From an uncultured Methanomassiliicoccales archaeon (GTDB lineage: Archaea > Thermoplasmatota > Thermoplasmata > RBG-16-68-12 > JAJISG01): DNA of 64,000 nt. A model generated the notes under the pieces. It saw only the letters and a program-made list of their open reading frames with translations, had not been told where the DNA came from and did no database searches. The stretch lies in NCBI GenBank assembly GCA_964348155.1, contig CAYGBN010000002.1, forward strand, positions 3,520 through 67,519, written 5' to 3'. Positions 34,799 through 38,092 of this stretch are shown piece after piece. A program made the position numbers and the translations under genes. Each line of letters begins with the position of its first letter. The first letter of the stretch is position 1.

Positions 34799-35908
34799 TC
34801 AGCTGATAAGGTCTAGCTCCCCCTCCACCACGTAGGCGGTCTCCTTTCCCAGGAGGTTCTCTCCGTGGACCCCCGTCAGCACGACCAGAACCTGGACCTC
34901 CTCGTGGAGGTCGGGGTCCACGGAGCAACCCCAGATGAGTCGGGCCATGGGGTTGATGGTGTCCCCCACAAGCTCCGCCGCCAACTCCGCCTCCGAAACG
35001 GTGAGGTCGGCGCCCCCGACGACGCGAATCAGGGCTCCGCCCACCTGGCTCAGGTCCACCGCCCCGAGGAGCGGCGACTCCAGGGCCTCCGCCACGGCCA
35101 CCTCGATGCGGTCCCGCTCCCGGGATCCCTCGCCCAGGCCGATCATGGCCGTTCCTCCCTCCTCGATGATCGTCAGGAGGTCGCTGAAGTCGATGTTCAC
35201 CAGGCCGGGTCGGGTGACGATCTCCGTCATCCCCTTGATGCTCTGGGTCAGAATCTCGTCCGCCACCTTGAAGGCGTGGTCCAGCGGAAGGTCCGGGACG
35301 AGCTCCAGGAGCTTGTCGTTCGCGATGACGGCGGTGGTGTCGCAGTAGCGACGGAGCTTCGCCAGGCCGCCCTCGGCGTTCTCCCGTCGCATCCCTCCCT
35401 CCGCCGTGAAGGGCATCGTGATGACCCCCATGACCAGGGCGCCCGTGTCCTTGGCCAGGCGGGCCACCATGGGGGCGACGCCGGTCCCGGTGCCTCCGCC
35501 GAGACCCGCCGTAACGAAGACCACGTTGGCCCCCTGAAGCAGGGCCCGGAGCTCCCCCTGAGACTCCGTGGCCGCCCTCTCGCCCACCTCCGGCAGGGCC
35601 CCCGCCCCCAGGCCGCGGGTGACCCGCTTCCCCAGGAGGACCTTCTTGGGGGACCGGATGTGGAGGAGGTGCTTGGCGTCGGTGTTGATGGCCACGAGCT
35701 GCGCTCCCAGGACCCCCGTCTCCGTTAGCCGGCTGATGGTGTTGGACCCTCCCCCGCCGCATCCCACGATCTTGATGCTCACGTCCAGGGCGTTCACGAT
35801 GCGCCGGAGCTCCGCATCCTCCTCCGGCGACTCGTACGCGGGGACCTCCGCCTCCCCGGCGGGGGCCGAACGAATTCGCTCAATGGCCTGGTTGACAATG
35901 GACCGCAT
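34799..35908 (-). CDS. ftsZ: Cell division GTPase FtsZ
   Basis: [17 protein letters not shown]…[22 protein letters not shown] (tubulin signature GGGTGTG) plus the C-terminal domain. Start assigned to the internal ATG ([12 protein letters not shown]). Confidence 0.9.
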
Positions 35909-35984
35909 GCCGCATCCCATCCCTTGGGTGGCCGGCATCCCCTCCAGGCTATTTAAGCCTGACCCGCAGGCCCGGGCCAACGGC

Positions 35985-36746
35985 CTAGGTCTCCGCCGCG
36001 TGGACCACCAGGCCCCCCGTCCGGATCTCCATGGGCACGATGTACTCCAGGTGGGGGGACCCCTTGTACTTCTCGATGGAGATGAAGCGCTTGATGCCGT
36101 CCTCCTGGCGGAAGCGGTGCAGCCGGACCTCCCCCCGGGCCAGGAAGGTCTCCAGGTTGGATCCCGTGTTGTCCGGGGTCTCCACCGTCATGAGGGCCGT
36201 CTTCCCCGCCTCCGTGAGGAAGCGGATGAAGGATTGCGTGCTGAGGTTCTCCTCGAAGTCCCGCATGCAGAACATGCGCAGGGCCGTCAGGCTGTCGATG
36301 ACCACCCGGGCGTACTTCTTCCGGGTGAAGAGGTTCTTCAGCGCCTGCTGGAGAGAGTGGACCGTGACCTCCCGGGACTCCCCCTCGGGCGTCTTGCGGA
36401 TCTTGAAGGGGATGGTCTTCATGGGGACGGCGCCGATCTCCGAGGAGATCTCCAGGATGGGCTTGGGCTCGAACCGGCGGATGTCGGAATTGGCGTCCAG
36501 GATGTCCACGTCCCCCACCTTCCACTCGTGGGACTCCATGTTGTACCGGATCTCGTTGGGGGGCTCCTCCAGGGCGACGAAGAGGACCTGCTCCCCCGTC
36601 TTCATCCCCTCCAGGAGGAACTGCGTGCAGAGGGTCGTCTTCCCGCTCCCGGGAGGGCCGGCGACGATGTAGGGGCGGCCGGGGATGAGGCCGCCGTCCA
36701 GCATGACGTCCAGCCCCTCCACGCCGGTCCGGATCTTCTCCACCAT
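35985..36746 (-). CDS. KaiC-like single-domain RecA-superfamily ATPase
   Basis: [40 protein letters not shown]…VVIDSLTAL… Walker A and B. 253 aa. Confidence 0.8.
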   Translation of the reverse strand: MVEKIRTGVEGLDVMLDGGLIPGRPYIVAGPPGSGKTTLCTQFLLEGMKTGEQVLFVALEEPPNEIRYNMESHEWKVGDVDILDANSDIRRFEPKPILEISSEIGAVPMKTIPFKIRKTPEGESREVTVHSLQQALKNLFTRKKYARVVIDSLTALRMFCMRDFEENLSTQSFIRFLTEAGKTALMTVETPDNTGSNLETFLARGEVRLHRFRQEDGIKRFISIEKYKGSPHLEYIVPMEIRTGGLVVHAAET

Positions 36747-36749
36747 GGG

Positions 36750-37805
36750 CTAGCCCCCCGCGGTCACGGGCACCGAGGCGCGCTCCTTCCGTCTTCGCAG
36801 GGCCTTCAGCAGGGGCACGCACTGCCGCAGGACGTCGTCGTGGCGTCCCAACTGGAGGTGGACCATGACCCGGTAGATGCGGGGCTTCAGATCCTGGATG
36901 CTCACCCCCTTGGCCTCCAGGTCCTCCCAGAGGAGGATGATCTCCTCCAGGACCTCGAAGGCCTCGTCGGCCATGATGTCGTGGACGAAGCGCTTCAGCA
37001 CCCCGTCCGTGCGCTTCCCGTGGAGGGCGACCTCCCCGCCGCCCTGGACGAAGAGGCCCTCCTTGCCGATGACCATGGGCCGGTAGTGCTCGTCGAAGGG
37101 GGAGCCTCGCATCTTCTCGATGGAGATGGCCCGCCGGACGGCGTTGGACTCGAACCACTTCTGGATGCGGATTTCCCCGCGGGCCAGCAGAAACTCCGTA
37201 AGGAGCTCGCCGGGCTCGGGGATCTCCGCGACGATGAGGCTGGTGGCCTCGAGCTCTGCGAGGAACCGCATGAAGGACTGGATGAGGATGCGCCGGTCCT
37301 CTCCCTTCATGCCGAACATCTTCAGGCTGGTCATGGAGTCGATGACGACCCGGGTGTAGCGCTTCCCCGTGGCCTTGAAATGGGCCTGGAACTCCTGCTT
37401 GAGCATCTTCTGGACGGAGTGGATGGAAACCTCCATGCTGCGCATCTTCTGGCTCTTCCGCATCTCGTTGACCTGCTCCATGTCCCGGATGTCCAGGGTC
37501 GTCCCCACGTCGATGATGGACTTGCTCTTGCTGTGGGGCCGGATGTCCGGGGTGGCGTCCAGGATGCGGAGGCGGTCCAGGTTCCAGCCGAAGTGGGCCA
37601 GGTTGTCCTTGATCTCGTTGGGGGGCTCGTCCACGGCCACGAGGATGACGCTCTCCCCGTTCTGGATCCCCGCCAGGAGGAACTGCACCCCGAGGATGCT
37701 CTTCCCGCTCCCCGGAGGGCCGGAGACGATGTAGGGGCGACCCGGGATGAGGCCGCCGTCGAGCATCTCGTCCAATCCCTCCACGCCCGTGGAGATCCGA
37801 TTCAT
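36750..37805 (-). CDS. KaiC-like ATPase with ~140-aa C-terminal helical extension
   Basis: [46 protein letters not shown]…VVIDSMTSL… plus an unassigned C-terminal domain. Start chosen at the internal ATG ([12 protein letters not shown]). An alternative upstream start lies at 37925. A 3-nt gap separates it from the downstream KaiC-like gene. Confidence 0.75.
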
Positions 37806-38092
37806 GGTCCGCAGCCCGGGCCTCCCCTCGGCCGCGAGAGTGATAAGCCTATCCGTACGATTCTTACAGGCGATAAGGTGGCTGCCGGGGGATAGCGGGG
37901 CCTGGACGCTCCGTCCGAGGCTCACGGCACGTGCCGCCCTCGGACCTTTGAACCAGGGATCTCCGGGTTATGAGCCCGGCGGGATTTTAGGCGCTGTTCA
38001 CCGGAAAGGACCGGGATCCAGGGTTTCCTAGCTACCCCACCCCGCTTCCCCTCTCCCACCGACGCGGGGAATATTAAGGTATCGGGGCCACC

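Follow-up and report, generated by a model that had tools for sequence, protein, structure and literature searches.

Organization of the kaiC-A/kaiC-B/ftsZ locus

The analyzed stretch of 64,000 nucleotides (nt) from an uncultured Methanomassiliicoccales archaeon (contig CAYGBN010000002.1), as a whole referred to here as the window, is archaeal sequence with a GC content of 65-73%. It harbors two genes for KaiC-like ATPases, kaiC-A and kaiC-B, upstream of ftsZ and the exosome/proteasome gene block. A first-pass annotation made from the sequence alone had proposed that this pair heads the block, is co-transcribed with ftsZ and forms a regulatory module for division or the cell cycle. The tandem arrangement of two KaiC-like genes (Pfam PF06745) in front of ftsZ and the block is real and far beyond chance. 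The minus-strand order kaiC-A, kaiC-B, ftsZ, pop5, psmA was borne out by the listing of open reading frames (ORFs) and by family searches, which place the genes for an amidohydrolase, RNase HII and SCP2 in front of kaiC-A. Downstream of ftsZ, pop5-psmA-SBDS-rrp4-rrp41-rrp42-rpl37ae-rpoP-prefoldin beta follow on the same strand. Thus the pair does lie upstream of the block, but the gene heading it is ftsZ, and the two kaiC genes appear as a separate unit. The central gene models are as follows.

36750..37805, minus strand: kaiC-like gene A, 351 amino acids (aa), Pfam PF06745 with an expect value (E) of 1.1e-40; homologues likewise of 351 aa
35985..36746, minus strand: kaiC-like gene B, 253 aa, Pfam PF06745 E 3.4e-40, no C-terminal extension
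34799..35908, minus strand: ftsZ, 369 aa from the ATG at 35908, first gene of the ftsZ-pop5-psmA-SBDS-rrp4-rrp41-rrp42 block

The gap of 3 nt reported between kaiC-A and kaiC-B is correct (stop of A at 36750, ATG of B at 36746). The start of KaiC-A at a GTG at 37925, however, is an artifact of choosing the longest ORF. The true start is the ATG at 37805, which shortens the protein by 40 codons, because the closest homologues are 351 aa long and cover 93-100% of a query starting there. The 4-nt gap reported between kaiC-B and ftsZ is an artifact as well and depends on a TTG at 35980. The product of ftsZ was assigned by NCBIfam TIGR00065 (E 4.6e-111, above the cut-off) and by the Pfam families Tubulin and FtsZ_C. 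Its alignments to over 50 homologues start at M-R/K-S, corresponding to the ATG at 35908; the ATG at 35920, which is in frame, could be the start as well. As ftsZ starts at one of these positions and not at 35980, the real spacer comprises 64-76 nt.

A conserved putative promoter in front of ftsZ

Two conserved elements are located in this spacer.

35949..35957, minus strand: TATA box CTTAAATAG of the predicted ftsZ promoter, inside the kaiC-B-to-ftsZ spacer
35913..35923, minus strand: invariant GGGATGGGATG motif of the ftsZ 5' leader, 4-6 nt before the start codon

Promoters were searched for with a simple TATA pattern, and a scanner for sigma-70 promoters and terminators was left aside because its rules are not applicable to archaea. 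YTTAAATAS has only three exact matches in the 64-kb window with its 68% GC, among them the TATA element of ftsZ, and GGGATGGGATG occurs there as a sole exact copy, so that it is specific for ftsZ within the window. Related loci for comparison came from a pattern scan with one genome per species, which yielded 60 loci, all from uncultured Thermoplasmata/Thermoplasmatota metagenome-assembled genomes (MAGs) whose record titles also read Methanobacteriota, Euryarchaeota or Methanomassiliicoccales. Another 12 metagenome or MAG loci were added via exact-protein look-ups, and all were annotated by tblastn with the window proteins. In these loci the TATA box of the window aligns with a TTTAAATA box at a constant distance upstream of ftsZ. 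The 110 nt preceding ftsZ contain a TATA box (TTTAAATA/CTTAAATA) about 45-60 nt from the start codon in every lineage. The strict TATA pattern was present upstream of ftsZ in 47 of 56 loci, and GGGATGGGAT was located there in 53 of the 56, regardless of the upstream gene. The box usually lies between GTCTGAC/GTCAGA half-sites (35913-35965 in the window; L003:7880-8000, L025 and L042 are further examples). The entire block stays with ftsZ behind kaiC-B, behind a gene for an S8 protease or behind non-coding DNA, and it is also kept where a helix-turn-helix (HTH) gene on the opposite strand or up to 8.7 kb of DNA intervenes.

The ATGs within the leader motif are out of frame with ftsZ in most relatives, which indicates that the motif is a leader and not coding sequence. 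Archaeal transcription initiates about 22-27 nt downstream of the TATA box; the ftsZ transcript would start at or just before the leader motif. RNAalifold gave no supported structure for the leader (three pairs, no compensatory changes, -0.86 kcal/mol), and the motif is not complementary to the usual anti-Shine-Dalgarno sequence. From this conservation we infer that ftsZ is transcribed from its own TATA promoter, whose activity is predicted. The clade-wide promoter/leader motif is as noteworthy as the original division claim and provides a handle for studies of division-gene regulation in this clade.

Conservation of the junctions in related genomes

The junction between kaiC-A and kaiC-B is never broken, with a gap of -10 to +35 nt in every related locus (60+). 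At the kaiC-B/ftsZ junction the spacer measures 64-162 nt in 36 of 55 informative loci, whereas inserts of 0.5-8.7 kb are present in 17, and in the two others ftsZ was not found within 7-10 kb of kaiC-B. Two of the inserts are apparently non-coding (0.5-0.6 kb), 13 have a size of 1.1-2.3 kb and two of 6.8-8.7 kb. The inserts contain a gene for a subtilisin-like (S8) protease, possibly anchored in the membrane, or small ORFs, or else a small opposite-strand ORF accompanied by an HTH regulator in convergent orientation. The SCP2/kaiC-A junction is also variable (0.2-2.2 kb).

The check suggested along with the division proposal, conservation of the KaiC-KaiC-ftsZ adjacency, turned out positive within one Thermoplasmata clade, where ftsZ is located downstream of the pair on the same strand and within 9 kb in 53 of the 55 informative loci. 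The pair is, however, embedded in a syntenic block of 15-20 kb that is retained down to 47% KaiC-A identity. Its upstream part comprises TatD, TBP, ApbA, EndoV, amidohydrolase, RNase HII, SCP2 and a tRNA gene, and it continues with KaiC-A, KaiC-B, ftsZ, pop5, psmA, SBDS, rrp4 and rrp41. The unrelated genes for the amidohydrolase, RNase HII, SCP2 and the tRNA are equally syntenic with the KaiC pair. Since the whole block is syntenic, the KaiC-ftsZ adjacency is no better conserved than adjacency to unrelated genes. A distant unfused pair whose A protein lacks the C-terminal tail (L056) lies next to isochorismatase and UbiA genes, and fused A-B genes (L066, L071, L072) have RibD_C, PAC2, methyltransferase and other unrelated genes as neighbors; neither is near ftsZ. 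Same-strand adjacency is thus a feature of the clade that the distant pair and the fusions do not share.

Co-transcription with ftsZ had been deduced from tight spacing, which goes back to the ORF-calling artifact, whereas the ftsZ promoter travels with ftsZ and the junction was repeatedly broken by insertions. As judged from the sequences, the pair and ftsZ do not look like one operon, as a putative promoter intervenes and tight spacing with ftsZ is not conserved. Of the two points on which the first-pass annotation let its proposal depend, absence of the adjacency from all relatives is not what is seen, while sequence conservation speaks for an independent ftsZ promoter. A dedicated division or cell-cycle regulator that is co-expressed with FtsZ and modulates, for example, the Z-ring via the tail of KaiC-A would agree with the one-strand order A, B, ftsZ in 53 of the 55 loci, with the lack of an obvious terminator in the spacer of the window, and with the presence of the tail in the ftsZ-adjacent clade and its absence from the non-adjacent L056 pair. 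However, the correlation between tail and adjacency represents a single phylogenetic event, and at least four types of insertion, including opposite-strand genes, occur at the junction. The conserved promoter moves with ftsZ, the 4-nt gap is artificial, the unrelated upstream genes are equally syntenic, and the fused and distant relatives are not near ftsZ. The similarity of the tail to EzrA (8% identity) reflects a generic fold. A role of the pair as division regulator is therefore unlikely, and no specific evidence supports this link, given the independent ftsZ promoter and the general synteny. A literature search did not find a link between KaiC-like proteins and FtsZ in archaea. If the division link were real, archaeal FtsZ would for the first time be connected to an ATPase switch, but the evidence argues against inferring this from gene order alone.

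A gene for an S8 protease is located directly upstream of ftsZ in several subclades (L011:11861-12919, L048:5237-6379, L069:9193-10293; also L004:8768-9931 and L007:17412-18425). Its product has an N-terminal hydrophobic stretch, judged by eye, that is possibly a membrane anchor. The gene adjoins ftsZ even where kaiC-B is 6.8 kb away. Its position beside ftsZ possibly predates the direct kaiC-B/ftsZ junction of the window. Two distant subclades (77% and 52% KaiC-A identity; L001:7818-8631, L004:7829-8630, L006:2627-3437) harbor a gene for a winged-helix regulator of about 173 aa (HTH_HVO_0163_N/ArsR-like) together with an ORF of 89-93 aa; both run convergently to kaiC-B, and the 3' ends share a 4-nt overlap. 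The window contains no copy of this regulator. In two MAG contigs, at L061:9582-10450 and L062:9517-10522, KaiC-A was recovered by tblastn in two pieces with the middle missing, next to intact KaiC-B and ftsZ. This may reflect a pseudogene, masking of the sequence or a frameshift.

A tRNA gene and a promoter-like block upstream of kaiC-A

Between SCP2 and kaiC-A two further features are located.

37840..37880, minus strand: promoter-like block upstream of kaiC-A, CACCTTATCG...GGATAGGCTTATCAC, conserved in the subclade of the window
37893..38046, minus strand: tRNA-Met(CAU) with two non-canonical introns, found by alignment with intron-poor orthologues and in-silico splicing

The promoter-like block lies about 35-50 nt before the ATG of kaiC-A and includes a TATA-like element, AGGCTTATCAC, at 37840-37850, about 35 nt before the ATG. 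An analogous block, TGATTCTCAcGtCGcAACgTTTATCG, is present at equal distance in the other subclades, and the block probably acts as a promoter. Because of this conserved block and of the tRNA gene that separates SCP2 from kaiC-A, kaiC-A and kaiC-B are predicted to have a promoter of their own. The region thus reads as three putative transcription units, namely the tRNA-Met gene, kaiC-A/kaiC-B, and a unit that starts with ftsZ and includes its downstream genes.

The tRNA-Met gene was missed in its unspliced form by ARAGORN and Rfam, which reported no RNA genes on the raw window. Alignment of the SCP2-to-kaiC-A intergenic region with three relatives revealed an invariant acceptor stem, AGCGGGG...CCCCGCTA, and the CAU anticodon arm, interrupted by lineage-specific insertions. 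When two segments were excised with varied boundaries, ARAGORN identified tRNA-Met(CAT) in 1,415 of 2,268 trials. The introns have a length of about 35-45 nt; one is situated between the D-arm and the anticodon stem and the other in the T-loop. Orthologues differ in this respect, as L004 harbors an intron after the anticodon loop and L048 and L054 have none in the 3' half. A tRNA-Met with two introns that is missed by standard tools is as noteworthy as the original division claim. The over-extended ORF of KaiC-A runs into this gene, and bases 37893-37925 belong to the tRNA. The locus therefore calls for caution with longest-ORF calling in high-GC archaeal DNA, which produced the false 4-nt junction and a likewise spurious N-terminal extension and hid both a tRNA gene and a promoter.

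Pairing and natural fusion of KaiC-A and KaiC-B

KaiC-A and KaiC-B are paralogues with 46% identity. Seven A-B fusion proteins of 529-537 aa were found in sister lineages, with the two parts in the same order as the genes. Their N-terminal half shares 56% identity with A and 43% with B, their C-terminal half 57% with B and 44% with A, and a short basic linker takes the place of the helical tail of A. The junction of the separate genes is invariable and often overlapping. Together with the natural fusions in the same order this constitutes classic Rosetta-stone evidence, which argues that A and B would work as one complex.

In two of the loci with a fused gene, a PAC2-family gene is located 52-57 nt downstream on the same strand (L066:4732-5499, L072:4657-5343). 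Such a neighbor, which encodes a proteasome assembly chaperone, could point to a role of the pair as proteasome-associated ATPase or assembly factor. This role would also fit the position of psmA three genes downstream in the same syntenic block, with ftsZ and pop5 in between. Cultivated relatives of the lineage are thought to lack PAN. However, the two contigs with PAC2 are closely related, and the link is absent in L071 and L056. An HbYX-like ending is absent from A, B and the fusion, and psmA is part of the exosome/proteasome superoperon irrespective of the KaiC genes. A proteasomal function of the pair is thus very unlikely.

Family assignment and fold of the ATPase domains

Both proteins were assigned to PF06745 with 139.9 bits (A) and 138.3 bits (B) against a gathering cut-off of 26.6, the matches covering profile positions 1-227/229 of 231. 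The Walker A motifs read GPPGSGKS and GPPGSGKT, Walker B is VVIDS in both, and the catalytic acidic pair (DEPP/EEPP) aligns with the catalytic EE of KaiC. The alignment to the KaiC motifs by phmmer thus agrees with the first-pass annotation, which had described intact Walker A and B motifs in both ATPases. A and B score higher on the CI than on the CII domain of KaiC (phmmer; 57.7 versus 33.0 bits for A). The CII phosphosites S431/T432 are not conserved, as the KaiC segment SHISTITD aligns with 'teflla..rgeiri' of A and the corresponding segment of B reads LETFLARGEV. Phosphosites elsewhere in the proteins may exist. Each protein consists of a single domain, and a CI-CII-like fusion is seen only in the relatives. 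The KaiB family is absent among the Pfam-annotated neighbors, although no search aimed at kaiB or kaiA was made.

None of the curated models for better known members of this superfamily was reached (scores given for A and B). The NCBIfam KaiC models gave 98.9 and 106.1 versus a cut-off of 408 (NF006799) and 69 and 54.8 versus 546 (TIGR02655). Among the archaeal KaiC subfamilies TIGR03877, TIGR03878, TIGR03880 and TIGR03881 the best scores were 91.9 versus 307 for A (TIGR03877) and 88.6 versus 249 for B (TIGR03880). ArlH/FlaH yielded 18.7 and 32.9 versus 215, and archaellum genes are lacking in the annotated neighborhoods. RadB gave 16.2 and 22.8 versus 278, and RadA (sms) about 31 versus 403. 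Since all these models remain far below their cut-offs, the pair is, on profile scores, an uncurated subfamily of the KaiC-like domain family (PF06745/COG0467). As sampled, this well-defined and uncharacterized subfamily is confined to uncultured Thermoplasmata. A role in defense was rejected, as PADLOC gave only weak partial matches to mad8 at the P-loop level (E 2.7e-5 and 9.8e-8). A distant double-KaiC protein of 620 aa, convergent to a GvpD-type P-loop/KaiC protein of 514 aa, was encountered at L070:5255-8756 and is unrelated to ftsZ.

Databases name homologues of the pair "RAD55 family ATPase", and the two proteins might accordingly be a RadA-paralogue mediator of recombinational DNA repair, similar to aRadC/SSO2452 or to a Rad55-Rad57 heterodimer. 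Two paralogous subunits recall Rad55-Rad57, the fold is that of the RecA superfamily, the PDB matches include the Sulfolobus RadA paralogue SSO2452 (E 5.9e-12 and 3.1e-10) and, more weakly, RadA, RecA and RadB, and genes for RNase HII and endonuclease V/MGMT are located a few kb upstream in the syntenic block. However, KaiC is matched with much greater significance (E 5e-32) than RadA/RecA (1e-4 to 1e-5), the NCBIfam scores for RadA and RadB are far below the cut-offs, and the DNA-binding N-terminal domain is absent. "RAD55" is a generic label of COG0467. SCP2, the tRNA gene and the promoter separate the repair genes from the pair, and endonuclease V is on the other strand. There is thus little probability that the pair acts in repair.

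The fold of KaiC-A, the only one of the two proteins that was modeled, was predicted by AlphaFold from a 32-sequence alignment with a predicted local distance difference test score (pLDDT) of 78. The model has a RecA/KaiC fold, and the nearest solved structures are the hexameric single-domain protein PH0284 and KaiC CI (probability 1.0). The KaiC-CI-like ATPase domain extends over residues 1 to about 255. Within it, an expanded loop at about 88-124 directly follows LDATPD, which was aligned to DASPD of KaiC CI. Its sequence is highly conserved and its pLDDT is below 50. KaiC-B harbors the same family-specific insert after LDANSD, and the segment from the DA(T/N)(P/S)D motif to Walker B is about 35 residues longer than in KaiC and the Pyrococcus proteins. 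The position of the loop presumably equals that of the KaiB-binding B-loop of KaiC CI. Taken together, these features suggest that the loop is a surface that would become ordered only in a complex.

The C-terminal tail of KaiC-A

The C-terminal extension of KaiC-A had been given as 140 aa without a recognizable family. With the corrected start it comprises about 95-97 aa (residues ~255-351). No Pfam family scores above threshold, which agrees with the earlier statement, but the predicted structure is a weakly TPR-like three-helix bundle. The bundle was predicted with confidence both alone and in context (helices 269-298, 307-318 and 322-344; pLDDT ~90). The tail of the window protein itself has no TPR match at E<=1, while three to four of 18 orthologous tails show sub-threshold matches to TPR_12, TPR_16 or TPR_2 (E 1e-4 to 6e-3). 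The length of the tail is conserved across the clade, its sequence poorly so, with one invariant Arg. EzrA was rejected as a meaningful match, as it appears among designed bundles of similar Z. An exhaustive profile search with the tail first returned orthologues of KaiC-A, followed by large proteins with 5-12 matches each, as is typical of a helical repeat unit. The tail is thus best described as a TPR-like helical adaptor and not as a new fold.

The proteins with repeated matches include P0164, P0167, P0169 and P0172 (700-2,400 aa, 5-12 tail-profile matches), several of which lack Pfam annotation in the matching region. This points to an uncharacterized helical repeat in these proteins that would be related to the tail. 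Many KaiC-A orthologues (e.g. P0043, P0045 and P0053) carry a proline-rich tail (PPPPP...PPPP) after the bundle. KaiC-A of the window is without it and ends with ...SVPVTAGG.

Proposed function of the KaiC-A/KaiC-B pair

Considering these observations together, kaiC-A and kaiC-B are probably a two-gene operon in their own right, which would encode a heteromeric ring ATPase of the KaiC-CI-like type. Their adjacency to ftsZ most likely goes back to inherited synteny. The adjacency is regarded as synteny and not as operonic coupling because ftsZ has its own conserved TATA promoter. The two genes would be transcribed from their own promoter and translationally coupled, and would encode two subunits of a ring ATPase of the RecA superfamily. 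Both subunits resemble KaiC CI and, to judge from their motifs, seem capable of catalysis. With KaiC CI-CII as the analogue, and in view of the natural fusions, the most likely assembly of A and B would be hexameric rings, either stacked or mixed, in which ATP hydrolysis would drive conformational switching or signaling to bound partners. Partners would probably bind at the expanded loop together with the TPR-like C-terminus of A. The geometry of the hetero-oligomer, the binding of partners and the activity of the promoters are all inferred.

Some observations weigh against this interpretation. The 76-nt spacer between kaiC-B and ftsZ in the window contains no oligo-T terminator, and read-through into ftsZ is possible. 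The same-strand order A, B, ftsZ is kept down to 47% KaiC-A identity, which would fit weak selection for proximity. The support for hetero-oligomerization comes from gene linkage and fusions only. Finally, the loci were found with family-specific peptide patterns, so that contexts outside the clade are thinly sampled (about five loci). A ring of A and B could also be a lineage-specific regulator that docks on the FtsZ division ring or on the 20S proteasome/PAC2 via its tail and expanded loop, which we hold to be improbable. Function rather than neutral synteny would then explain why the pair has stayed close to ftsZ-pop5-psmA and, in the fused lineage, to PAC2. Independently of its partners, the pair of the proposed autonomous operon offers, together with its fused relatives, a natural case of a two-domain KaiC architecture that exists both split and fused.

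Comparison with known systems

Archaea harbor numerous and diverse KaiC-like ATPases, and in general such proteins are also known as pairs or fusions. The archaeal members are said to act as 'signaling hub' ATPases, a view attributed to Makarova, Galperin and Koonin (mBio, 2017). The closest structural counterparts of the window proteins are PH0284 and PH0186 of Pyrococcus horikoshii (PDB 2dr3 and 2zts), which are hexameric KaiC-like ATPases and likewise consist of single KaiC-type domains of about 250 aa. The likeness to the PH0284-type fold is evident in Foldseek (E 1e-18, template modeling score about 0.79 on the target, 26% identity) and in sequence (E 2.8e-18 and 1.3e-18). In contrast to PH0284 and PH0186, the window proteins are encoded by an obligate A/B gene pair, their segment from the loop motif to Walker B is about 35 aa longer, and A carries the additional tail. 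Cyanobacterial KaiC belongs to the same domain family, with aligning Walker A, EE/DE, Walker B and DASPD-like motifs, and the A-B fusions of the relatives recreate its two-domain architecture. In the window, however, the domains are separate polypeptides, both are CI-like, and S431/T432 are not conserved. ArlH/FlaH and the archaeal KaiC-like hubs belong to the same superfamily, are single-domain proteins and have proposed contacts with partner machines, whereas the window pair scores far below the ArlH cut-off and has no archaellum genes nearby.

With regard to gene order, the cdrS-ftsZ2 locus of Halobacteria offers a parallel, as an archaeal ftsZ is likewise immediately preceded by a non-division gene in the same orientation. 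There, a small regulator is co-transcribed with the ftsZ gene. In contrast to this shared transcript, kaiC-B and ftsZ of the window are separated by a conserved TATA promoter, and relatives often carry interruptions at the junction. The archaeal exosome/proteasome superoperon was reportedly described by Koonin, Wolf and Aravind in 2001. The block of the window from pop5 to prefoldin is a textbook copy of this superoperon (see also PMC2695463). The KaiC-like genes are not a described component of it, and the pair of the window is best viewed as a separate unit located upstream.

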